NCBI GenBank assembly: GCA_049296095.1
Contig: JBAQRV010000001.1
Coordinates: 270,001-302,000, forward strand
Origin: Candidatus Saccharimonadota bacterium
GTDB lineage: Bacteria > Patescibacteriota > Saccharimonadia > Saccharimonadales > Saccharimonadaceae
Direction: 5' to 3'
Length of the DNA: 32,000 bases
Shown here: piece by piece, positions 1 to 29,476 of the stretch
Layout of the letters: every line of letters starts with the position of its first letter
Position numbering within the stretch: the stretch's first letter is position 1
The notes under the pieces: generated by a model
What the model saw: the letters and a program-made list of their open reading frames with translations, nothing else
Databases searched by the model: none
What the model was told of the DNA's origin: nothing
Translations under genes and position numbers: made by a program

Positions 1-3000
1 ATGTGACAGTAAATGTTCCGCTCGAAGTAAAGCGATGAATCGTATTGCCACCCGAAGTAGTGATCGTTCCACCCGTCGCCGTCATCGTACCGGTAGGATA
101 GGAGATAATAACCACACCAGAGCCACCGGCACCACCATTTCCGCCGCCATCGCCTCCGCCGCCGCCACCGCCGCCTCTGTTCGCCGTGCCCGCTGCGCCT
201 GCAGTCGGACCGCCACCTTGGCCACCAACACCGCCAGCACAACCCGCCGCCCCTACACCATTAGTAACATTTGCCCAACGGCCACCGCTACCACCGCCTG
301 CGTAGCAGACACTTGCACCACTTATTGAAGTTGTATAGCCGGCCCCTCCTGTACCCGAGACACCTGCGCTCATAGCACCTGTTGCATTACCACCTGCGCC
401 CGTTGCGCCACCGCCACCACCACCTTGACCTGCAGTAGAGTCAGAGGATCCATTACCCCCTCTGTTCCCACGACCGATAGTCCCGAGCATACCCGCACCG
501 GCAACTCCCGTTGCTGCGTCGATCGTCCCTGCGCCGCCGCCACCAGAACCACCTATTGTCGCCTGAGAAACAGAGTTTGTGTTAATGCGCCCGCCGCCGC
601 CGCCGCCGCCTAGAGAGATAATTGTTGAGAATACCGAAGTACCACCCATTCCGCCTGGAGTACCGATGCCAACACCACCACTTCCTCCAGCACCAACCGT
701 TACGGCATACGCCTGCTGGCTTACAACTACCGTACCTTCAGAAACACCGCCACCACCACCGCCACCTGCGTGGTTATTTCCGCCGCCGCCACCGCCACCA
801 ACTACCAGCGCTTGTACCGTTGCTAGTTGTTCTGTATCTGGTACGGGTCGAAAAGCTGCACTATAAGAATAGGGGATTGTACTACTTGTAGACCAGACAA
901 AACCGGCTAACCAACTTGCATCGGTACGAGTTAATATAGAGCTGTCAGATAATTTCCGAACTGAAAGGCTAAACCCAGCGCCACCACTAACATTGTAGTC
1001 TGAAACCGCAAACTGATGTTCACCCTCAGTAAGAGTCACGTTTACCGTATAGACATTGTTATATGAGCCTGAAGCGATGATAGTACCATCAAGATAGATA
1101 TCACAGGTTTCATCGCAGTTATATGTCACCCTCACATCAGTCGGTGAAGTAACCGTAATTGTTCGACTATCGCGAAAGAATGAGTACTGCGCCGACGGGG
1201 AATTACCGGAGCCATCATAATTATGCACTGTCGTAATCCAACGCGCACCCGCATCGCTACTATTACTTGTCCATGCGCTGTTAACTGCCTGTGCACTAAA
1301 CCTATCTCGACTCACTCCCCACATACTTGATAACGCATCAAAATCCTTATGTGCAAAGTTAACCGTGTCACCGGCCGTTGCTCGCCAACTGCGATCTGTC
1401 ACTGCAACTGGGATTGAAGCACCTTCTTGAATGACGCTCGCTTCAAAACGAGCAGCATTGTTTGCTAAGTCTGGACTCAGGTTAATCAAACGTACAAATA
1501 CATTGTGACATCCACTCGATAAAGTGACACTACCGGATCCGAGAGTGCCCGCTTCAGACCTAGTAATATACTTCCCGTCGACATATATATATGCACTATC
1601 GTTCACACCAGACACCTGTACGCCAACGTTATAAGTTCCTGCATTCGTCACGCTAAAGTCTTTCCTGTAGTAGGTCGAGCCGGGATTTAAAGCACTGTCA
1701 GAAATACTTATTGTCTGCGCTAAAGACGTGGGAGAGTAATCGACCTGAGTACTCGTAAGAACAGCTGCTTGCCAACCTAATGTGCTCGAAGTTGCCCCGG
1801 AACATAGATCGGGAACGACCGCCGCCTGGACGCTTGGTTGAGTGTAAGTTCGCCAGACCGATCCATTCGATGTACGAGTAATTTCCGTATAGCCAGTATT
1901 AGGGATAGTGACCGCTTTGCCATCACTATCGAGAGTCGGGCGACCCACACTAAATGAACTGCGGACATTGCCGTTCTGGGTTACGAAACATTGCGGGCCG
2001 CTAGGGCAGGGGGCAGAACTTGAACTTGTCACAGTAAAGGTACCACTCGATGTAAAGGTGTGGGTCGTGCGTCCACCAGAAGTGGTGATCGTGCCCCCGG
2101 TTGCCGTTATCCATCCGGTTGGATAAGAAATAATAACAATACCAGAGCCACCATTACCACCCTTATTATTAGAGTTATAGTGAGACCCTCCGCCGCCGCC
2201 GCCGCCAGTATTAGCGCCAGCGTTACCTCCTGGCGTATTCGTTTGAGCGTTCGGACTACCACCGCCACCAGGCGATCCGTTATTAATACCTAGCGTACCG
2301 CCAAGCGTTACACCGACAGCGCCACCGCCGCCACCGCCAATACCTCCATTGCCGCCAGCAGATAATGTATAAGCAGCGCCACCGCCGCCACCGCCAAAGT
2401 AATATGAACTGATATCTGAATATCGGATTCCAGCCCCTCCGTTTGCCTGGGCAGGTCCACTAGTACCAGCACCACCCGCACCACCACCACCACCTGAATA
2501 ATATGTGGTTGAGGTGGAACCACCTCCATTGTTTCCTTGTCCAAGAGTACCAAGTCCACCGGGCATAAGTGGTGCTCCAGCCGTATAGCCACTTGAACCA
2601 CCGCCGCTGCCACCGGCAGCACCGCCTGGACCAGGCATGTAGATATGATGGGAGCTACCACCTCGGCCACCGCCGAGCGCGTTCACAACCTCAGCACTAT
2701 CGGCTGTATCGGTCGTATCCCGTCCGTACACCTCAACTCGGGCTGTACGATTCATTCCCGATGTACCGCAACAACTATACCAGTCTCCCGCGCTGTAACT
2801 CCCTTGTTTTAGACCGATACCTCCACCCGCATCATCCGAAGTATAGACACCAGCACCGTTCTCATTAAAACGAAAACCCCAGCGTGCTGCGGCGCTACTC
2901 ACACCCAGATCTCCTAGCTTTGTACCCCAGGCAGATGGCCCGGGAGGACCAGTTTGTTGGATTGGTTGGCTACTGAACGCAGTCGAGAAGTACGGTGAGG

Positions 3001-3952
3001 ATGTATGATTACCCCAGTTTCTAAATTCATTGAATCCCTGTAGGGCTGTCCGGCTCGACCATGCACTTGAATGGAGCCAACGCCTATCATCAGCATCTGG
3101 CCATCGAGCCATCAAATCAGTCACTGATGATTCGTTGAATGAACGGAACTTCGCATCGCCGTCATTTCTATTCAATGCCGATTCATTCAACGTATTGGCT
3201 GTATCCCAATAACTAGAGCTGTATGAAAAAGTCGTTCCCCGAGTTGCCTTCATAAGAAGTGTCCAGCCGCCGCCAGTATAAGTCATGTCACAATATGCCT
3301 GGAACGGGCTATTTGGGCCTGTCGTGTCGGGATCAATCCAGTACACGCCATCTGTGTTAATGCCGTCTAGCTTTAGTGAGTAGCAACTTTTACCGGGGAT
3401 GCTCGAACTCGAGCCATAAGTTGGGATAGAGGCAGGCTTAATCGACGAATTTTCTCCATTTTTTGCCGGAATAGTAAACTGGTGAGCAGAAGCTTGACCG
3501 TTAGTACCCCCAGCAGGAGCGCCAGCGCCACCCGCACCGACAGTCACTGTGTACGCCTGGTTTGATATTGGAAGGTCTGCGTTGTACACAACACCACCGC
3601 CACCACCGCCACCGCCCATATCCATACCACCGCCGCCGCCGCCAGCCACGATGAGAGCGCGCACAGTCGGAGCAGACAACTCGTTACCAGCACAATCGGT
3701 CGAGGGGGTGAGCGGCTTCGCATCAGTCCACTGCGGCACATTCTCACTTGCCGTAAGACAGGCTTTCGCGTAAGCAACCCCAGCCTCACCAGCCATCTGA
3801 GCAAGTTGCTGATAGTACTGGGTTTTAAGAGTTGTCCGCACCGCAGCGGTTGCCGAAACGGAAATAGCAAGAATAGACAATAAGATAACTGAAGCAATCA
3901 ACACTGTCGGCAGTGCAAAACCTTTTTTAAAACTGGTGTGCATGGAATGCAT
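1..3952 (-). CDS. Giant secreted/surface protein whose C-terminus is cut by the window edge. It has a prepilin/PilX_N-like N-terminal segment, two polyglycine-rich modules, an inserted fibrinogen-C-like domain and two beta-sandwich repeats.
   Basis: Manual frame check: minus-strand codons starting at 3952, 3949 and so on contain no TAA/TAG/TGA down to position 2 (1,317 codons). The upstream in-frame stop is at 3964..3962, the first ATG at 3952 and a second ATG at 3943. The gene is missing from the track because no stop lies inside the window. N-terminus: MHSMHTSFKKGFALPTVLIASVILLSILAISVSATAAVRTTLKTQYYQQLAQMAGEAGVAYAKACL. Long G-runs occur, e.g. ALIVAGGGGGGMDMGGGGGGGGVVYN..YTVTVGAGGAG. YCDMTYTGGGWTLLMK is present, and the motif GSG(I/V)VIISYPTG..TATGGTITTSGG.T.H.FTSSGTFTVT occurs twice. 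Confidence 0.85.
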   Translation of the reverse strand, partial: MHSMHTSFKKGFALPTVLIASVILLSILAISVSATAAVRTTLKTQYYQQLAQMAGEAGVAYAKACLTASENVPQWTDAKPLTPSTDCAGNELSAPTVRALIVAGGGGGGMDMGGGGGGGGVVYNADLPISNQAYTVTVGAGGAGAPAGGTNGQASAHQFTIPAKNGENSSIKPASIPTYGSSSSIPGKSCYSLKLDGINTDGVYWIDPDTTGPNSPFQAYCDMTYTGGGWTLLMKATRGTTFSYSSSYWDTANTLNESALNRNDGDAKFRSFNESSVTDLMARWPDADDRRWLHSSAWSSRTALQGFNEFRNWGNHTSSPYFSTAFSSQPIQQTGPPGPSAWGTKLGDLGVSSAAARWGFRFNENGAGVYTSDDAGGGIGLKQGSYSAGDWYSCCGTSGMNRTARVEVYGRDTTDTADSAEVVNALGGGRGGSSHHIYMPGPGGAAGGSGGGSSGYTAGAPLMPGGLGTLGQGNNGGGSTSTTYYSGGGGGAGGAGTSGPAQANGGAGIRYSDISSYYFGGGGGGAAYTLSAGGNGGIGGGGGGAVGVTLGGTLGINNGSPGGGGSPNAQTNTPGGNAGANTGGGGGGGSHYNSNNKGGNGGSGIVIISYPTGWITATGGTITTSGGRTTHTFTSSGTFTVTSSSSAPCPSGPQCFVTQNGNVRSSFSVGRPTLDSDGKAVTIPNTGYTEITRTSNGSVWRTYTQPSVQAAVVPDLCSGATSSTLGWQAAVLTSTQVDYSPTSLAQTISISDSALNPGSTYYRKDFSVTNAGTYNVGVQVSGVNDSAYIYVDGKYITRSEAGTLGSGSVTLSSGCHNVFVRLINLSPDLANNAARFEASVIQEGASIPVAVTDRSWRATAGDTVNFAHKDFDALSSMWGVSRDRFSAQAVNSAWTSNSSDAGARWITTVHNYDGSGNSPSAQYSFFRDSRTITVTSPTDVRVTYNCDETCDIYLDGTIIASGSYNNVYTVNVTLTEGEHQFAVSDYNVSGGAGFSLSVRKLSDSSILTRTDASWLAGFVWSTSSTIPYSYSAAFRPVPDTEQLATVQALVVGGGGGGGNNHAGGGGGGGVSEGTVVVSQQAYAVTVGAGGSGGVGIGTPGGMGGTSVFSTIISLGGGGGGGRINTNSVSQATIGGSGGGGAGTIDAATGVAGAGMLGTIGRGNRGGNGSSDSTAGQGGGGGGATGAGGNATGAMSAGVSGTGGAGYTTSISGASVCYAGGGSGGRWANVTNGVGAAGCAGGVGGQGGGPTAGAAGTANRGGGGGGGGDGGGNGGAGGSGVVIISYPTGTMTATGGTITTSGGNTIHRFTSSGTFTVT
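2..811 (-). repeat. Polyglycine-rich module, copy 2 (uninterrupted)
   Basis: ALVVGGGGGGGNNHAGGGGGGGVSEGTVVVSQQAYAVTVGAGGSGG...TSVFSTIISLGGGGGGG...NRGGGGGGGGDGGGNGGAGGSGVVIISYPTGTMTATGGTITTSGGNTIHRFTSSGTFTVT. The terminal 41-aa motif (nt 2..124) parallels nt 2027..2149. Confidence 0.7.
905..1741 (-). repeat. Two tandem beta-sandwich-like (PA14/CBM-like) repeats inside the giant protein
   Basis: Repeat 1 (about 1379..1741): ...YYRKDFSVTNAGTYNVGVQVSGVNDSAYIYVDGKYI...GCHNVFVRLINLS...ARFEASV...VTDRSWRA. Repeat 2 (about 905..1378): ...FFRDSRTITVTSPTDVRVTYNCDETCDIYLDGTII...GEHQFAVSDYNVSGGAGFSLSV...TRTDASWLA. Both share the pattern F....V......V.V....D...IY(V/L)DG..I....G.H.F.V......F.(A/L)SV....TD.SW.A. 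Confidence 0.5.
2027..3658 (-). repeat. Polyglycine-rich module, copy 1 (interrupted by the fibrinogen-like insert)
   Basis: Runs from ALIVAGGGGGG...QAYTVTVGAGGAG through the insert and ...GGGGGGGSHYNSNNKGGNGGSGIVIISYPTGWITATGGTITTSGGRTTHTFTSSGTFTVT. It has the same order of elements as copy 2. Confidence 0.7.
2720..3394 (-). other. Fibrinogen C-terminal-like (FReD) domain embedded in the giant protein
   Basis: Translation: GKSCYSLKLDGINTDGVYWIDPDTTGPNSPFQAYCDMTYTGGGWTLLMKATRGTTFSYSSSYWDT...RTARVEVYGR. This matches the hallmark pattern SC..L...G....G(V/I)Y.I.P......PF.(V/A)YCDM.T.GGGWT(V/L) of fibrinogen-related domains. Confidence 0.7.
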
Positions 3953-3987
3953 ATTGTTTAGTTAGCCCTACTCAAATACTTGGCACT

Positions 3988-5157: not shown

Positions 5158-6299
5158 ATCGCCTCAAACCTTGCAAGGGTCGTCTCGAGATCATGAGTCT
5201 TGGCAATAGCCAAACTCTCTTTGCTCATACGCTCACGCTCGACGGGGTCCGTAAGTACCTTTAGAAGTGCGGCTGCCATTGCTTGATCGTCATCGAGCGG
5301 GAAGAGATAGCCGTTGCGCCCGTCCTGACATAATTCACTTAGAGCTCCCGCATCAACCGCAACCACAGGCTGACCACTGGCCATTGCTTCGAGTGTTGCA
5401 ATACTCTGCAATTCCATCGGCGAAGGCATCGCAAAAACGGTGCCAACTTGATGGAGTAACTCCTTATCTTCTTCGGTGACACGGCCGGTGAAGGTGATGT
5501 GATCAAAAATAGCTAATTCGTGGGCTTGTTCTTTAAGATTAATCGCTTCTTGACCATCACCAATAATCAAGAGGTGAGCATTCTGCGTATCGAGGAGGCG
5601 TTTAAGGGCATTAATCAGTACGAATACATGTTTTTCAGCGTCCAAGCGTCCCACGAAGGTAATGATAGGTATGTCAGTGGGGAGATTAAATTTTTTATAA
5701 AAATCTTGATCGGGCTTCCCTGGCGTAAAGTGGGTGAGATCGATGCCGTTAGACACCGCCTCCATAGGCACCTTTACCTTGTCGCTGGCATTAAACATAT
5801 CGATGGCAGATTGTGTTGGCAGTGTCACATAGTCGGCTTTGGAATGAAACCGAGCCCCATATTGAGTCAGCATGTAATTAATCGGGCGTGCGATTGGTGC
5901 AAGCAACATGATATTATCCATCAAGTTTTCCGGCATGGCGTGATTCGTCGTCACAATCGGAATATCCTTCTTGTTCCCGTATTTCATTGCCGCCTGGCCA
6001 ATCCACATCATCATTTGAATATGAATAACATCGGGCTCGAACTCTTCAATAATCTTTTTTACTTCGCGACCAGGAGTAGGGGAGATGCGGAAATTTTGGT
6101 AAGGCAGAAACGGCACTGAAGCCGTTCGGACGACGATGTGGTTATTATCAATTTCTTTAAACTTTTTGTTTGTCTGACTGGGCGCAATCACCAAAACCTC
6201 ATGCCCACGAGCCGCCAAGCCCCGAGCGAGATTGCGGCTAAAAGTCGCCACGCCATTGATCGTCGGGTAGTGTAAATCCGACGCGATAAGGATTTTCAT
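5133..6299 (-). CDS. Glycosyltransferase, GT4 family (GT-B fold)
   Basis: MKILIASDLHYPTINGVATFSRNLARGLAARGHEVLVIAP at the N-terminus. EX7E motif in PSPMELQSIATLEAMASGQPVV. Its 3' end overlaps the convergent hydrolase gene by 25 nt. Confidence 0.85.
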   Translation of the reverse strand: MKILIASDLHYPTINGVATFSRNLARGLAARGHEVLVIAPSQTNKKFKEIDNNHIVVRTASVPFLPYQNFRISPTPGREVKKIIEEFEPDVIHIQMMMWIGQAAMKYGNKKDIPIVTTNHAMPENLMDNIMLLAPIARPINYMLTQYGARFHSKADYVTLPTQSAIDMFNASDKVKVPMEAVSNGIDLTHFTPGKPDQDFYKKFNLPTDIPIITFVGRLDAEKHVFVLINALKRLLDTQNAHLLIIGDGQEAINLKEQAHELAIFDHITFTGRVTEEDKELLHQVGTVFAMPSPMELQSIATLEAMASGQPVVAVDAGALSELCQDGRNGYLFPLDDDQAMAAALLKVLTDPVERERMSKESLAIAKTHDLETTLARFEAIYESLIKS

Positions 6300-20638: not shown

Positions 20639-20665
20639 TACACGGTTCCACCTTACAACCTATTC

Positions 20666-20950
20666 TTGTTCCATGTCCCTATATTCGGAGGGTGGCGACA
20701 TTATACGTTGTTTGAGGCGTCACAAGAAGAGTTCCATATTGGCTGGGCCAGTCGAATCAATAGGAAGCTAGCCCAAGCGGCAATTCATCGATTGACACTT
20801 TTTGATGGGCATGTTCGAATGTTGAATGGAGCGGGCAACTCAGAGACAGATTTTTTCGCAGTAGATCCAGATGGTATACAAATCGACATCCAGGTTGCTG
20901 GCACAGGAGTGCTTGGCGACAGTCAATTTCCTGGAACTCGGCTGCTTTAG
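20666..20950 (+). CDS. Hypothetical ORF in the same frame as 20150..20638, separated from it by a single TAA. It may be the severed 3' part of one gene.
   Basis: TTG start, no SD. 20666-20150=516, a multiple of 3. The 9 codons between the TAA (20636-20638) and 20666 contain no stop. Confidence 0.3.
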   Translation: MFHVPIFGGWRHYTLFEASQEEFHIGWASRINRKLAQAAIHRLTLFDGHVRMLNGAGNSETDFFAVDPDGIQIDIQVAGTGVLGDSQFPGTRLL

Positions 20951-21165
20951 GCGGACCATACTTAAGTAAGTAGGTAATGATACGTTTCAACGCATAATTT
21001 CACCCACAATTACTTTATAAACCGAAGCCCTGCACTTTTTCGTGATACCATATACCTATGCTTTTGCAAGTGGCTTGTCGCCATTTGACGCTATGTCTTA
21101 AAGACAAAGCGGTTGCACTGTTCAAAAGGAGTACATTGTCATCAGCCAGGAAAAAAGACCCCTAA

Positions 21166-21194
21166 TTGTACATTCGACCCAAAAATGGTATAAT
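21166..21194 (+). promoter_or_regulatory. Sigma-70-type promoter TTGTAC-17 nt-TGgTATAAT, 8 nt upstream of ATG 21203
   Basis: TTGTACattcgacccaaaaaTGgTATAATataattatATG. Confidence 0.6.
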
Positions 21195-21202
21195 ATAATT
21201 AT

Positions 21203-21961: not shown

Positions 21962-22051
21962 TCTCTTGTCATAACCCCCGTTATGAGTCATACTAACCAC
22001 AAGAACTTTCACGCCTAAAAGCGAAAAGGGTAGGGGGCAGTTATCACACCA

Positions 22052-24007
22052 TTGTCATTGTCACGATTTTGGCACCGCCGAATTTATGAGGTGGTCTTTT
22101 TGCTATGCTTAGCTATTATCGCTCTCTACGTCGTGCCGATCGTCACAAATGTATCAGCGACCGGCTTATTCGGTATTAGCATTTGGGTAGCGATGAGCGC
22201 TGGCGTGACCGCTCTGGCAAGTTTGGCGCTTTACATCTTTAGTCCAAAACAACCACATTACGTCCTACCCCTGATGGTATACCTATTGTTTGCCGCCACC
22301 GTCGCACTACTTGTGATTCAAACGGGCGGCACGATGTCACCATTTATCGCCCTCTGGATGCTAGTGTCATTCTTTGGCGGTATTTTTGCCGTCTGGGGGG
22401 CAGTCCCTTTACTGGTTGCAAGTGCGGCTTTTATCGCCTCAATCTATCTCAATGGGGAGCTGTCGATCGGCGCAGTAGCATTAGTCGCCTTTACCTCAGT
22501 CGTTCCTCTCATTATCAGTATCGTTATCTGGCGCGACCAAGGTGAAAATGATGAAGCAACCAAAAATGTCAAAAACCTCGCCAGCCAGCTATCCGAGGTA
22601 GCGAATAAATCTGAAATTGTCATTAACGCCATTGGTGACGGCGTGATAGCTATTGATAGTCAAGGGGTCATCCAACTCATCAACCCCGCTGGACAGGAAC
22701 TCTTGGGATGGGGGAAGCAAGACGCCTTGATGCTTAATTACAAGTCAGTCTTACAGATGACCGACCAGAATAATCATGAAATAACACCCGAAAACGACCC
22801 GATTCGCCAGGTGCTGAACACCAACCAACAAATGCGCTCAAACAACCTTATTATCCTGACAAAATCAGGTAAAAAGATTAACGCCTCGATCGTCGTGTCG
22901 CCAATCGGTGAGTCTGGCAACGGAGTTATCACGGTATTTAGTGATATCACCAAGCAAAAAGCTGAAGAGCGCGAGCAAGCCGAATTCATCAGCACCGCCA
23001 GTCACGAAATGCGGACGCCGGTTGCTTCTATCGAAGGGTACTTGGGACTCGCACTGAACCCAAATACCGCCACAATTGATGAAAAGGCCCGTGACTTTAT
23101 CATGAAAGCCCACGAAGCCGCTCAGCACCTTGGACGCCTCTTCCAGGACCTGCTCGACGTCTCTAAATCCGAGGATGGCCGTATGACGAGCATACCGAAA
23201 GTTGTTGATATGACCGTCTTTACTCAGACGATTGTTCAAGGGTTAGCACCAAAGGCTCAAGAAAAGGGTCTCAAACTTGTCTATGTACCATCCGAAAATG
23301 ATGGGGTGAGAAAGATCGCCCCAGTATATTTTGTTAATCAGGATAACGACCATATCCGAGAAGTCCTAGATAATTTAATTGAAAACGGCATCAAATACAC
23401 GCCAAAAGGCGAGGTCATTGTCGACATCAATGGCACGGACGATAAAGTCATTGTCAGCGTCAAGGATACAGGTCTCGGCATCCCAGCCGAGGATATCCCG
23501 CATCTCTTTCAAAAATTCTACCGCGTCGATAATATCGACCGTCAGGCAATTGGCGGCACTGGCCTCGGCCTCTTCCTGTGTCGTCGTCTGGCCGAAGCTA
23601 TGGGTGGCCGACTTTGGGTAGAAAGTGTCTACACCAAAGGAAGCACCTTCTTCTTTGAACTACCTCGAGTCAACAGCCAAGACGCTACGCGGCTAAAGGA
23701 ACAGCAAGCCCTCCAGGCACAACAAGCCGCTGCTACACAGCCAACTGCTACAGCGCCTGTATTCACTCCTGCTCCTCAGGCCGCCACACCAGCCAGTACG
23801 CCTGCGCCGACCCCAATACCGACTTCATCCGAAACCAAACCAGCGACGACCGTCCCGCGCGGCGAGAGCCTCACCCGTGAACAAATTGCCGAGCATGTCC
23901 GTCAGCTCCAGGCGATGGCTCGTGGCACACAAACAGTCCCGCAACGCCCAGTCACACAGATCCCCGTCAGTGACGGATCACCACCTCCTGGACCACCCCA
24001 AGCATAA
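22052..24007 (+). CDS. Sensor histidine kinase (HK2) with polytopic N-terminus, PAS-like region and a P/A/T/Q-rich C-terminal tail
   Basis: H-box ASHEMRTPVASIEGY, N-box NLIENGIKYT, DTGLGIP, GTGLGLFLCRRLAEAMGG. The tail reads QALQAQQAAATQPTATAPVFTPAPQAATPASTPAPTPIPT...GSPPPGPPQA. The TTG start at 22052 is uncertain. Confidence 0.85.
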   Translation: MSLSRFWHRRIYEVVFLLCLAIIALYVVPIVTNVSATGLFGISIWVAMSAGVTALASLALYIFSPKQPHYVLPLMVYLLFAATVALLVIQTGGTMSPFIALWMLVSFFGGIFAVWGAVPLLVASAAFIASIYLNGELSIGAVALVAFTSVVPLIISIVIWRDQGENDEATKNVKNLASQLSEVANKSEIVINAIGDGVIAIDSQGVIQLINPAGQELLGWGKQDALMLNYKSVLQMTDQNNHEITPENDPIRQVLNTNQQMRSNNLIILTKSGKKINASIVVSPIGESGNGVITVFSDITKQKAEEREQAEFISTASHEMRTPVASIEGYLGLALNPNTATIDEKARDFIMKAHEAAQHLGRLFQDLLDVSKSEDGRMTSIPKVVDMTVFTQTIVQGLAPKAQEKGLKLVYVPSENDGVRKIAPVYFVNQDNDHIREVLDNLIENGIKYTPKGEVIVDINGTDDKVIVSVKDTGLGIPAEDIPHLFQKFYRVDNIDRQAIGGTGLGLFLCRRLAEAMGGRLWVESVYTKGSTFFFELPRVNSQDATRLKEQQALQAQQAAATQPTATAPVFTPAPQAATPASTPAPTPIPTSSETKPATTVPRGESLTREQIAEHVRQLQAMARGTQTVPQRPVTQIPVSDGSPPPGPPQA

Positions 24008-27493: not shown

Positions 27494-27534
27494 CTCGTTT
27501 CCTCCTTCGATGGTACAGCGAGGTGAATGTACAT

Positions 27535-27543
27535 ATTATATCA
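27535..27543 (-). promoter_or_regulatory. Extended -10 TGaTATAAT for the small membrane gene (leadered, SD GGAGGA at 27500-27505)
   Basis: Minus strand reads gTGaTATAATatgtacattcacctcgctgtaccatcGAAGGAGGAaacgagATG. Confidence 0.5.
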
Positions 27544-27579
27544 CACTTGGCCTTATTTATCAATCAACGACGAATGCGG

Positions 27580-27585
27580 TACAAT
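27580..27585 (+). promoter_or_regulatory. -10 TACAAT, 9 nt upstream of pth ATG
   Basis: gcggTACAATggtgacaagATG(27595). Confidence 0.4.
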
Positions 27586-27594
27586 GGTGACAAG

Positions 27595-28158
27595 ATGAAA
27601 CTTATCTTCGCCCAAGGCAACCCAGACCGTAAATACGCCAAAACCCGCCATAATACGGGCTTCTTAGTGCTCGATGCCTTCGCAGACAGGCATAGTGCCC
27701 TCTGGAAGGACAATGATAAGTTCAACGCCCGTGTGGCCGAACTCAACATCAACGGCGAAAAGGTCCTCCTCGTCAAACCCGCATCATTTTATAATGACAC
27801 CGGCCCAGTCGCCCGCAAGCTTATCGATTTTTATAAGTTAAACCCTGCAACTGATCTTTTGGTTATCCACGACGACCTTTCCTTGCCATTTGGCACTATC
27901 CGCCTCCGCGAAAGGGGAAGTGATGCTGGCAATAATGGTATAAAAAGCCTCAATACCTTCATTGGCGAGCATTATTCACGTGTTCGTATCGGTATCTGGA
28001 GCGAGCAACGCGACCAAATGGACGATGTCAGTTTCGTCCTCGGTAAATTCTCGGCCCACGAGACCAAGCGGCTCGAAAAAGATGCCATGCCAAAACTTAT
28101 CGAGATTATCGAAGATTTCATCGCCTCAAACGTCGAACACACCAGTCATAAGGTATAA
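27595..28158 (+). CDS. pth: Peptidyl-tRNA hydrolase
   Basis: MKLIFAQGNPDRKYAKTRHNTGF, HDDLSLPFGTIRLR, GNNGIKS. Start taken at M25 of the track ORF. Confidence 0.9.
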   Translation: MKLIFAQGNPDRKYAKTRHNTGFLVLDAFADRHSALWKDNDKFNARVAELNINGEKVLLVKPASFYNDTGPVARKLIDFYKLNPATDLLVIHDDLSLPFGTIRLRERGSDAGNNGIKSLNTFIGEHYSRVRIGIWSEQRDQMDDVSFVLGKFSAHETKRLEKDAMPKLIEIIEDFIASNVEHTSHKV

Positions 28159-28160
28159 AG

Positions 28161-28556
28161 AAAAACCCCCTCGGTTAAGAAGGAGTTAATCAGTCTGTTC
28201 TAACATAAAAAGGTGCCAGGTAAGGGTGGGCATCACCTGACACCATTTTACCCTTTAACCCACCCGGATGTCCTCAATGAAGCGTACGCGGTCCAATAGT
28301 ATATATGGTGCGCGCCTGATCTCCCCGAGGGGAGGTCACTACTGTATAGTCACTATAACGAGTACACCGTAAAACGGGTTGCCACCTCTGAAAGAGGCAG
28401 TGTTAAAGGGATTAGTATACACACAAAGCTTTCGTCCGAAAACGGCCGACAAGATGGAGGGTAGTTACCTTGACGACACCGTGTGTGCAACCTAACATTA
28501 AAGTTAGAATAGGGGGTATAAGGTGCTTGGTTGATCTCGCAGATGCAACCAATCAT
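28161..28556 (-). ncRNA. Candidate structured non-coding RNA of unknown class (about 350-395 nt). An alternative reading is a 67-68 aa Cys-rich ORF plus a structured 3' region.
   Basis: The 460-nt gap between pth and dprA has a near-consensus minus-strand promoter. At least six hairpins are present. Five G-U wobble positions pair on the minus strand but are A-C mismatches on the plus strand, in stems 28382-28400, 28212-28244 and 28166-28185. Two hairpin plus U-tract terminators lie at 28205-28244 and 28161-28185. Confidence 0.5.
28205..28244. terminator. 10-bp stem-loop with flanking T/A tracts. Candidate bidirectional terminator for pth and the minus-strand RNA.
   Basis: Minus strand: ggtgtcaggt-13 nt loop-acctggcacc followed by TTTTTAT. 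Plus strand: the same stem (with one C-A mismatch) followed by ATTTTA. Confidence 0.5.
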
Positions 28557-28561
28557 CACGC

Positions 28562-28590
28562 ATTTTAGCAGGTCTTTGACATTATGTCAA
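28562..28590 (-). promoter_or_regulatory. Near-consensus promoter TTGACA-17 nt-TGcTAAAAT on the minus strand
   Basis: Minus strand reads TTGACAtaatgtcaaagaccTGcTAAAATgcgtgATG... The -35 box is half of the palindrome TTGACATTATGTCAA. Confidence 0.6.
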
Positions 28591-28618: not shown

Positions 28619-29476
28619 GTGGAAATCAAGCATCTCAATCCAAAGGGTCACAGCTTTCTTCGGCCACTGTTACAGCTTGCAAAACCGCCGAAAGCATTAT
28701 ATCTTAAAGGCTCCCTGCCGACGACGCGTAAAACTGTGGTCGCCATAGTTGGATCTAGGAAGCCTACCTCTTATGGTAAAGAGGTGACCTTTGATTTAGC
28801 TTATAGCTTGGCTAAAAGAGGAGTGGTCATCGTGAGCGGCCTGGCATTTGGGGTGGACGCAATTGCTCACCGAGGAGCGCTCGAAGCAGGCGGAACGACT
28901 ATTGCTATACTGCCCGGTGGACTCGAGAGCATTTACCCAGCCGCGCATCAAAAGCTCGCTGAGGAGATTGTAGAGAAGGGAGGTGCCCTTCTCAGCGAAT
29001 ACGAGTCAGGAAAGCCTCAAAAGTATCAATTCCTCGCCCGCAACCGCATTATTAGCGGCCTAGCAGATGCGATTGTGATTACGGAGGCAGGTGAGAGGAG
29101 CGGCACACTTTCAACCACCAATCACGCGCTCGATCAGAATAAGGAAGTGTTTGCAGTTCCAGGTAATATTACGAGCCTATTGTCTATCGGGCCAAATCGC
29201 CTGATTCAGCAGGGGGCGCACCCAGTCCTCGGTGCTGATGACATCCTCGAGGTTATTGCGCCTCATTTATTACAACCTCAAACTTCATTCCCATTAGGGT
29301 CGAACCCTGCGGAAACAAAGATCATCAAGCTCTTACAGCAAGGGACGCGCAGCAATGACGAACTCCAGCAACAGTCCAGATTAAGTACCAGCGAGTTCGC
29401 CAGCACTTTAACTATGCTTGAGATAAACAAGGTTATCAGATCGTCTGGTAGCAATCAGTGGATGCTTATGGAATGA
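28619..29476 (+). CDS. dprA: DNA-processing protein DprA (Smf)
   Basis: VAIVGSRKPTSYG, SGLAFGVDAIAHRGAL, RNRIISGLADAIVITEAGERSGTLSTTNHALDQNKEVFAVPG. GTG start, TGA stop. Confidence 0.85.
   Translation: MEIKHLNPKGHSFLRPLLQLAKPPKALYLKGSLPTTRKTVVAIVGSRKPTSYGKEVTFDLAYSLAKRGVVIVSGLAFGVDAIAHRGALEAGGTTIAILPGGLESIYPAAHQKLAEEIVEKGGALLSEYESGKPQKYQFLARNRIISGLADAIVITEAGERSGTLSTTNHALDQNKEVFAVPGNITSLLSIGPNRLIQQGAHPVLGADDILEVIAPHLLQPQTSFPLGSNPAETKIIKLLQQGTRSNDELQQQSRLSTSEFASTLTMLEINKVIRSSGSNQWMLME

Follow-up and report, generated by a model that had tools for sequence, protein, structure and literature searches.

The described systems closest to the locus analysed here are of two kinds. The 6C RNA of Actinobacteria (RF01066) and RsaE/RoxS of Firmicutes are stand-alone RNAs with their own promoter and intrinsic terminator, whose C-rich loops sit on covarying stems and have G-rich partners; they are compact, with 60-120 nucleotides (nt) folded into two or three simple hairpins. 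The raiA/ModT, OLE, ROOL and GOLLD RNAs, all of them in Rfam, are large and rich in covariation, combine a conserved core with a variable periphery, occur across whole lineages and have functions that cannot be deduced from genomic context. A 32,000-nt stretch of a Saccharibacteria genome (Candidatus Saccharimonadota, contig JBAQRV010000001.1, positions 270,001 to 302,000; hereafter the window) contains a locus with likenesses to both. The minus strand of the gap between pth and dprA very probably encodes, as a gene of its own, a structured non-coding RNA that lies outside all catalogued families. A first-pass annotation had proposed an independently transcribed, structured and unclassified minus-strand RNA at this place. 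That proposal holds: promoter and terminal hairpin keep fixed positions, the helices covary, no open reading frame (ORF) is conserved, and Rfam, ARAGORN and motif searches return no match.

As in 6C RNA and RsaE/RoxS, the gene has its own promoter and terminator and places invariant C-rich loops or linkers on covarying stems. The resemblance is functional only, and membership in either family is excluded by the lack of an Rfam match at E <= 10; in contrast to these small RNAs, this one measures 250-450 nt, has about 100 invariant nt and includes a long-range helix (P4), a variable domain and, probably, a pseudoknot. With the large RNAs it shares size, abundant covariation, a conserved core within a variable periphery, lineage-wide occurrence and a function that the neighbourhood does not give away, but it matches none of their models and differs in its fixed locus and in a terminator hairpin that belongs to the conserved fold. 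Type A ribonuclease P (RNase P) RNA (RF00010) is similar in size, ubiquity in the lineage and pseudoknotted long-range pairing, whereas the present RNA lacks the P4 strands, a helix joining its ends and a match to the model. Transfer-messenger RNA (tmRNA; RF00023) is of similar size and has several possible pseudoknots, but the tRNA-like domain, CCA end and tag frame are missing here. Finally, terminator-type riboswitches and T-boxes resemble the RNA in their 200-400 nt, their intrinsic terminator end and an invariant purine strand (GGGUGG...) with alternative partners; in contrast to them, there is no regulated downstream gene and no Rfam match, and the terminator stem has no competing partner.

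The gap is 460 nt long, its ORFs are all short and unconvincing, and the public contig record (GCA_049286885.1, JBAQET010000003.1, a Saccharibacteria metagenome-assembled genome) calls no gene in it. Eighty loci were picked from GTDB species representatives by Pth protein similarity only; all are from Saccharibacteria, and their Pth is 52-68% identical to that of the window. A plain nhmmer search with the window's spacer found a homologue of the RNA downstream of pth in 68 of these 80 species loci, always in the same orientation and with E-values down to 2e-57. Aligning the spacers of relatives, which the first-pass annotation had suggested as a check, thus reveals a conserved and covarying element. 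Family profiles span 28556-28207 of the window (E = 2e-86) and find a single copy there. Lengths in relatives run from 248 to about 450 nt and fall into three size classes: short forms (248-300 nt), long forms (325-450 nt, among them the 351-nt copy of the window) and a more divergent form. The alignment of 65 full-length copies has about 255 shared columns, of which 99 reach at least 95% identity and 52 do not vary at all, so the RNA is more conserved than its neighbours, as seen against the 52-68% identity of Pth.

The position is as stable as the sequence. Relatives whose Pth shares just 34-41% identity with that of the window still have the order pth, RNA, dprA, and the RNA is divergent from dprA at every locus with sufficient flank, although a few loci (L025, L027, L053 and L058) have topA in place of dprA after the RNA. 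An exact-pattern scan matched at least 120 metagenome contigs, and the whole family is present on every one of the matches listed. Viral contigs gave no match to the family, and a phage origin is rejected on that ground. A search with DprA returned only close relatives (above 60% identity) and did not widen the taxonomic range; as far as seen, the RNA is confined to Saccharibacteria.

Selection on the fold is evident from both energy and covariation. Against shuffled sequences the minus strand folds with z-scores of -5.8 (400 nt) and -4.3 (351-nt core), compared with -1.8 for the plus strand. Pairs predicted by RNAalifold show compensatory changes at 25 of 49 positions in the short forms and 34 of 76 in the long forms. 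A curated model comprises P1, P2, P3/P3a, P4, P5/P5a, P6 and a pseudoknot, with pairs counted on alignment A1; in it, 91.2% of cells are paired and 46 of the 80 pairs have changed on both sides. None of 500 shuffles matched that count, and sliding the partners by 1-3 columns gives only 14-20. Helix cells contain 217 G-U against 61 A-C combinations, an excess that places the RNA on the minus strand and agrees with the wobble preference noted in the first pass. A plus-strand RNA is ruled out by G-U covariation, promoter, terminator and fold z-score, all of which indicate the minus strand.

Coordinates of the structural elements are collected in Table 1. The 5'-terminal hairpin P1 shows compensatory changes in relatives, such as GC to AU; its 11 base pairs (bp) with one bulge had been described correctly in the first pass, while the span given then (28523-28548) is replaced by the one in the table. 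P1 contains a YUGCGAGAU loop motif at 28536-28544, possibly a GCGA tetraloop, and the motif recurs in variable-domain hairpins of several subgroups (e.g. L009, L099, L102), where it may be a tertiary-contact module. P1 is followed by ss1, an invariant C-rich block, and by the hairpin P2, whose loop is an insertion hot spot of up to about 190 nt in relatives and whose stem exists in compensatory variants: UUAAC/GUUAA (L068, L179), CUAAU/AUUAG (L100) and CUAUC/GGUAG (L099). RNAalifold pairs the GUUAG strand with a downstream ACUAAY instead, a pairing contradicted by L068, L099, L159, L179 and L182, and the upstream CUAAC partner of P2 is preferred. All 11 of 11 pairs of the long helix P3 have changed on both sides, and its loop L3a is at least 95% identical. 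Over 65 homologues the predicted unpaired probabilities of ss1, L3a and the P6 loop L6 are 0.74-0.86 (0.74 for ss1, with a median of 0.88, and 0.86 for L3a), compared with 0.35 for the whole RNA.

The long-range helix P4 encloses the variable domain P5 and carries double compensatory changes in L028 (CCCUUUGUC with GACGAAGGG) and in L075. P5 shrinks to about 40 nt in short-form relatives, and within the long forms it has many compensatory changes of its own. It holds four of the hairpins listed in the first pass, of which the 8-bp hairpin lies exactly where it had been placed (28382-28400) and those given as 28317-28338 and 28346-28358 are recovered within a few bases. P6, the terminal hairpin and intrinsic terminator, has 11 of 17 pairs changed on both sides, among them the outermost ones (UAAAA...UUUUA to CCAAA...UUUGG); since this covariation extends into the A-tract and U-tract, the U-tract is part of the mature fold. 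The terminal stem, the CCCACCC loop, the GGGTGGG tract and the first U-tract are all as first described. A pseudoknot between the loop CCCACCC (28230-28224) and GGGUGGG (28265-28259) is plausible. Its strands GGUGGG and CCCACC are perfectly complementary; in P5 of the long forms, the first G triplet has a competing partner, a CCCR element.

The promoter proposed in the first pass, TTGACA and TGcTAAAAT separated by 17 nt, is borne out: it agrees with the sigma-70 consensus at 11 of 12 positions, has the TG of an extended -10 and recurs in relatives. Promoter-like sites in the region number 3, compared with 1.2 +/- 1.0 in shuffles, and the strict pattern TTGACA-17-TGC-TAnnnT is present in 37 of 66 relatives. 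The form seen in relatives is AAGTATTGACA, then nnnnGTCAA, then nnnnnGTGCTAnnAT. In all relatives that match the strict pattern, the end of the -10 box lies 34-40 nt from the first invariant block, and this fixed distance, a matter of spacing only, would put the start of transcription about 2-6 nt before P1. The -35 box is part of a perfect inverted repeat, TTGAC-N5-GTCAA, whose GTCAA half is kept in nearly all related promoters and which may be an operator common to the RNA gene and the divergent dprA. Because the GTG start of dprA (28619) lies only about 28 nt past the -35 box, the promoters of dprA and the RNA must overlap on opposite strands, to judge by the spacing. A weak candidate dprA promoter is TTAGCA (28565-70), 18 nt and AATACT (28589-94).

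At the other end, the conserved RNA stops at the U-tract of P6 (28211-28207), at about 28206. Both U-tract terminators of the first-pass annotation are present, but only the first is conserved, so the RNA proper does not extend to 28161. The second terminator has no counterpart in the alignment of relatives and is particular to this genome; it is probably a local back-stop against antisense transcription into pth. A helix between ACCCCCU and AGGGGGU, once suggested to close the whole domain, fails for its 3' partner, which sits in this non-conserved terminator. The pth gene has no plus-strand terminator of its own, and read-through transcripts from it would therefore be antisense to the RNA.

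A coding function for the locus is ruled out, as no reading frame is conserved among the 65 homologues, where the longest ORF has a median of 38 amino acids (aa). An ORF of 67-68 aa at 28353-28559 is found in this window only, the invariant block lies outside the longest ORF in 42 of the 65, and the frame through that block runs for 6 to 71 codons in different species before it meets a stop. A role as a cis-leader is excluded as well, because the genes downstream differ from locus to locus and the window has only the convergent pth there. What lies between pth and the RNA differs among relatives: on the RNA's strand, L028, L058, L077, L128 and L165 have a metal transporter of the ZIP family with a His-rich loop, and L029 and L036 have type IV pilin-like genes. 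In the 169 loci whose sequence continues for at least 700 nt past the RNA, same-strand proteins encoded there form clusters of no more than 5 members. Such heterogeneous neighbours rule out a leader of a ZIP transporter or pilin gene, and the lack of a recurring same-strand gene speaks against cis-regulatory leaders such as riboswitches, T-boxes and attenuators.

Nor does the RNA belong to a catalogued family. Rfam 15 (4227 families), applied at gathering score to the window and 17 related loci, finds only two tRNAs in the window and nothing in the relatives; when relaxed to E <= 10 for the RNA region and another 20 relatives from metagenomes, it yields just scattered chance matches, none recurring. 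The Rfam comparison suggested in the first pass thus assigns the RNA to no known family. With ARAGORN, neither the window nor any of 200 loci gives a tmRNA. The RNase P P4 strands (GNAANNUCNGNG / ACNRAANNNGGYUUA; GGAAAGUCC, ACAGAAnCCGG), sought with 2 mismatches allowed, the tmRNA T-arm GGUUCRAnUCC and UCCACCA end, the GGAA/AGCA motif of domain IV in signal recognition particle (SRP) RNA, and the T-box sequence are absent on both strands; for the P4, T-arm/CCA and SRP motifs this repeats what had been noticed at first sight. The plus strand holds GGUGCCAGGUAA and AUAGGGGGUAUAAGGU, which resemble segments of E. coli M1 RNA; they are on the wrong strand, and that reading is rejected.

Architecture separates the RNA from the same families. 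Its 5' end (P1) and 3' end (P6) are each a local hairpin, both covarying, and are unpaired with each other. RNase P RNA (RF00010/RF00011) is accordingly rejected for want of a model match, P4 strands and paired ends, and tmRNA for want of a tRNA-like domain, CCA end, tag frame and any ARAGORN or Rfam match. SRP RNA (RF00169/RF01854) fails on its GGAA/AGCA motif and on Rfam, and 6S RNA (RF00013) on the multi-domain architecture, the unpaired ends and Rfam. The remark that the size fits RNase P RNA or tmRNA does not survive, as size was its sole argument and neither RNA's defining features are present. The literature searched contained no description of the RNA.

What might such an RNA do? In the favoured model, which is tentative, it would act in trans by base pairing. 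Helices P1-P6 would form a rigid scaffold, with P4 closing the middle domain, the terminator loop probably pseudoknotted and the peripheral hairpins free to vary. This scaffold would display invariant C-rich single strands: ss1 ACCUUAUACCCCCUAUU, the P3 loop CUACCCUCCA (28464-28455) and, if not engaged in the pseudoknot, the P6 loop GCCCACCCUU. These strands would pair with G-rich stretches of other RNAs, as in 6C RNA and RsaE/RoxS. The invariant C-rich elements are ACCCCCU, ACCCUCC and CCCACCC, and as there are five or six C-triplet elements to a single G-rich strand, some C-runs must face outward. Taken as one joint statement, the gene together with trans-acting base pairing comes somewhat short of an even chance.

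One candidate target is a conserved G-run, (A)AGGGUAGGGGGC, in the leader of an operon encoding a PAS-HisKA (PhoR-like) sensor kinase (GTG start at 22091) and, next to it, a response regulator. Among 26 start regions of the window this leader ranks first in duplex energy for each of the three blocks (-19.6, -20.2 and -20.4 kcal/mol, compared with -15.3, -16.1 and -13.5 for the runners-up). The G-run stands at the same spot in six orthologous leaders (L204-L209; kinase 64-81% identical) while the sequence preceding it drifts, and 5 of 7 kinase leaders score as well as the top 2.5% of background segments. The start codon of the kinase is covered by a hairpin that pairs GGCACCGCC and GAGGUGG. The C-terminal tail of the kinase (23600-24007) is of low complexity, rich in Pro, Thr, Ala and Gln, and coincides with a GC peak of 0.60 and a strong negative GC skew.

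Several points weigh against this joint statement. The kinase-leader site was found post hoc, and its seven leaders, being homologous, are not independent. Complements of the C-rich strands show no enrichment, whether the 7-mer against ss1 is counted in the window or 9-mers against the C-rich blocks in 1.4 Mb of neighbouring loci. Many genes of this genome look leaderless, which weakens models based on masking of Shine-Dalgarno sequences. Both strands of the pseudoknot are invariant, so covariation neither supports nor contradicts their pairing. Transcription, ends and abundance of the RNA are read from the DNA. Finally, an invariant core of about 100 nt and a multi-domain fold with insertion hot spots would be less expected of a base-pairing regulator than of a catalytic RNA or the RNA of a ribonucleoprotein.

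That last point leads to the rival ranked close behind base pairing, in which the RNA, like OLE, raiA/ModT, ROOL or 6S, is held in a ribonucleoprotein or tertiary structure and its invariant loops and junctions contact protein or form a ligand-binding or catalytic core; it could, for example, sequester or scaffold a protein that binds C-rich RNA, mRNA pairing being beside the point. Size, the roughly 100 near-invariant nt spread over junctions and loops, and a periphery that tolerates insertions fit this rival equally well; it is also favoured by the three size classes with their variable peripheral hairpins around a conserved core, and by the class-wide retention in genomes of about 1 Mb. CCCNCC-like motifs recur in single-stranded form, as repeated motifs do in protein-sponge RNAs, and the recurring GCGA-type hairpin loops are possible tertiary contacts. 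There is, however, no linked gene for a partner protein, with neighbours other than pth and dprA varying, and no similarity to any known RNA of ribonucleoproteins; this rival, too, is only a doubtful candidate. A local role is unlikely. The RNA gene could control the competence gene dprA in cis through promoter competition, transcriptional interference or antisense pairing, a proposal to which the invariably divergent arrangement, the short distance from the -35 box to the dprA start, the conserved inverted repeat over the shared promoter region and the unterminated pth transcript all lend themselves; any read-through from dprA or pth would be antisense to the RNA over its full length. Such control has no need of 250-450 nt of covarying helices and invariant loops, selection acts on the fold of the minus-strand RNA, and the RNA is kept at the four loci where topA follows.

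Could the RNA instead be a sensor? The purine strand GGGUGGGUUAAAGGG would then pair either with CCCUUUAAC and the terminator loop or with the 5' block ACCUU..ACCCCC, tuning termination or read-through. ss1 is complementary to the entire purine strand (duplex of -16.2 kcal/mol, a pairing that RNAalifold also predicts), conservation falls exactly on the complementary parts while the intervening spacer varies, the window has a second terminator further on, and in five relatives the ZIP metal-transporter gene is next on the same strand. A two-state switch, in which ss1 vies with P4 and the pseudoknot for the purine strand, is sterically possible. But downstream genes are lacking in the window and at most loci and are unrelated where present, nested folding of the window RNA puts the alternative fold about 30 kcal/mol behind, the switch is not universal, L109 and L145 having an insertion in place of ACCCCC, and no Rfam riboswitch matches; a riboswitch-like sensor is quite improbable. 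Least credible of all is that the RNA is a known housekeeping RNA (RNase P RNA, tmRNA, SRP RNA or 6S RNA) in disguise. The size fits, as do class-wide occurrence and a strong promoter. RNase P RNA is divergent in the Candidate Phyla Radiation (CPR), and Lui et al. 2021 needed lower RF00010 thresholds to find it in 10 of 35 CPR genomes (PMC8172020); the annotation pipeline PGAP reports only 2 non-coding RNAs in an oral Saccharibacterium (PMC8830319). Against this, no Rfam family appears consistently at even E = 10 in the window and 20 relatives, the ARAGORN and motif searches above are negative, and all four RNAs need paired 5' and 3' ends where this one has a local hairpin at each. Moreover, Lui et al. 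2021 (PMC8172020) recovered RF00010-type RNase P RNA from each of the two Saccharimonadia genomes in their set that are complete.

Table 1. Window coordinates of the RNA, its elements, its flanks and the candidate target leader.
Feature	Coordinates	Strand	Remarks
Conserved RNA, long form	28206..28556	-	~351 nt; nhmmer family profiles and homologues
-35 box TTGACA	28585..28590	-	promoter scan
Extended -10 TGcTAAAAT	28562..28570	-	promoter scan; putative start ~28556-28554
Inverted repeat TTGAC-N5-GTCAA, TTGACATTATGTCAA	28576..28590		perfect; overlaps -35 box and spacer
P1, 5'-terminal hairpin	28524..28555	-	UUGGUUG/CAACCAA and AUCU/AGAU, GCG loop; 11-bp core with one bulge at 28552-27
ss1, single-stranded C-rich block GCACCUUAUACCCCCUAUU	28508..28526	-	invariant; >=95% identical in 65 species
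P2 hairpin, UCUAAC/GUUAGG	28491..28508	-	compensatory variants in relatives
P3, long helix and distal part	28418..28489	-	covariation; loop L3a AACUACCCUCCAU at 28466-28454
J3/4, ACUAAU	28412..28417	-	invariant in main group
P4, 5' strand CCCUUUAAC	28402..28410	-	pairs with 28259-28251 (GUUAAAGGG)
P5, variable domain	28266..28401	-
8-bp hairpin in P5	28400-28382	-	fold of window
Hairpin ACUAU/GUAGU	28350-28338	-	fold of window
Hairpin GACCUCCC/GGGAGAUC	28337-28318	-	fold of window
Purine strand GGGUGGGUUAAAGGGU	28250..28265	-	invariant; P4 3' strand and 5' strand of possible pseudoknot
P6, terminal hairpin and intrinsic terminator	28206..28250	-	stem 28250-28233 with 28223-28206; A-tract/U-tract extension lengthens stem
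L6, P6 loop GAUGCCCACCCUU	~28234-28222	-	invariant; conservation
Second intrinsic terminator	28159..28187	-	stem 28187-28164 and U-tract; ~20 nt behind conserved terminator, just before convergent pth
pth	27523-28158	+	upstream flank of gap
dprA	28619-29476	+	GTG start; downstream flank of gap
Kinase leader	22000-22108		~90 nt, conserved; promoter TTGTCA-17-CATACT; PAS-HisKA kinase and response-regulator operon
G-run AAGGGUAGGGGGC	22024-22039		~30 nt into kinase leader; complementary to C-rich blocks of the RNA

Elsewhere in the window, the gap at 20639-21202 is, at 564 nt, longer than that between pth and dprA, which the first pass had called the longest non-coding stretch. It too is without a convincing ORF (the best has 94 aa), has no Rfam match and folds with ordinary energy on either strand (z = +0.6 and -0.9). 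At the left end of the window, ORFs are scarce because a minus-strand frame of more than 1320 codons (1-3960), free of stops and open at the window's left edge, continues past that edge; the plus strand is C-rich at 1-800 (GC content 0.60, GC skew -0.3). The first genes at 6299(-), 13594(-), 14709, 16165, 21203, 24959 and 25694 have an extended -10 (TGnTATAMT) 7-12 nt before the ATG, and the same starts lack a Shine-Dalgarno sequence, which suggests that leaderless mRNAs are common in the source genome.

The locus is the founding member of an RNA family whose sequence, structure and position (between pth and dprA, antisense to both) are conserved across Saccharibacteria. These bacteria have lost most dispensable genes and have genomes of about 1 Mb, yet they keep 250-450 nt of non-coding DNA under strong selection for sequence and structure, and the RNA is probably important to these tiny epibiotic bacteria. 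Since the family is uncatalogued, standard annotation leaves the locus blank in every genome; a new class-wide RNA of the CPR would extend the short list of large bacterial RNAs without an assigned function and could serve as a phylogenetic and annotation marker for Saccharibacteria.

A bolder reading, put forward with some reserve, is that this is a lineage-defining housekeeping RNA without counterpart in other bacteria: either the RNA subunit of a new ribonucleoprotein or ribozyme, or a master regulator whose C-rich strands control the PhoR-like two-component system among others. Work from 2023 reportedly showed that Saccharibacteria can be grown on their hosts, undergo natural transformation and are amenable to transposon mutagenesis. 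Epibiotic Saccharibacteria are thought to rely on DNA uptake, and if the bolder reading is true, a promoter set back to back with dprA could tie nutrient sensing to that uptake.

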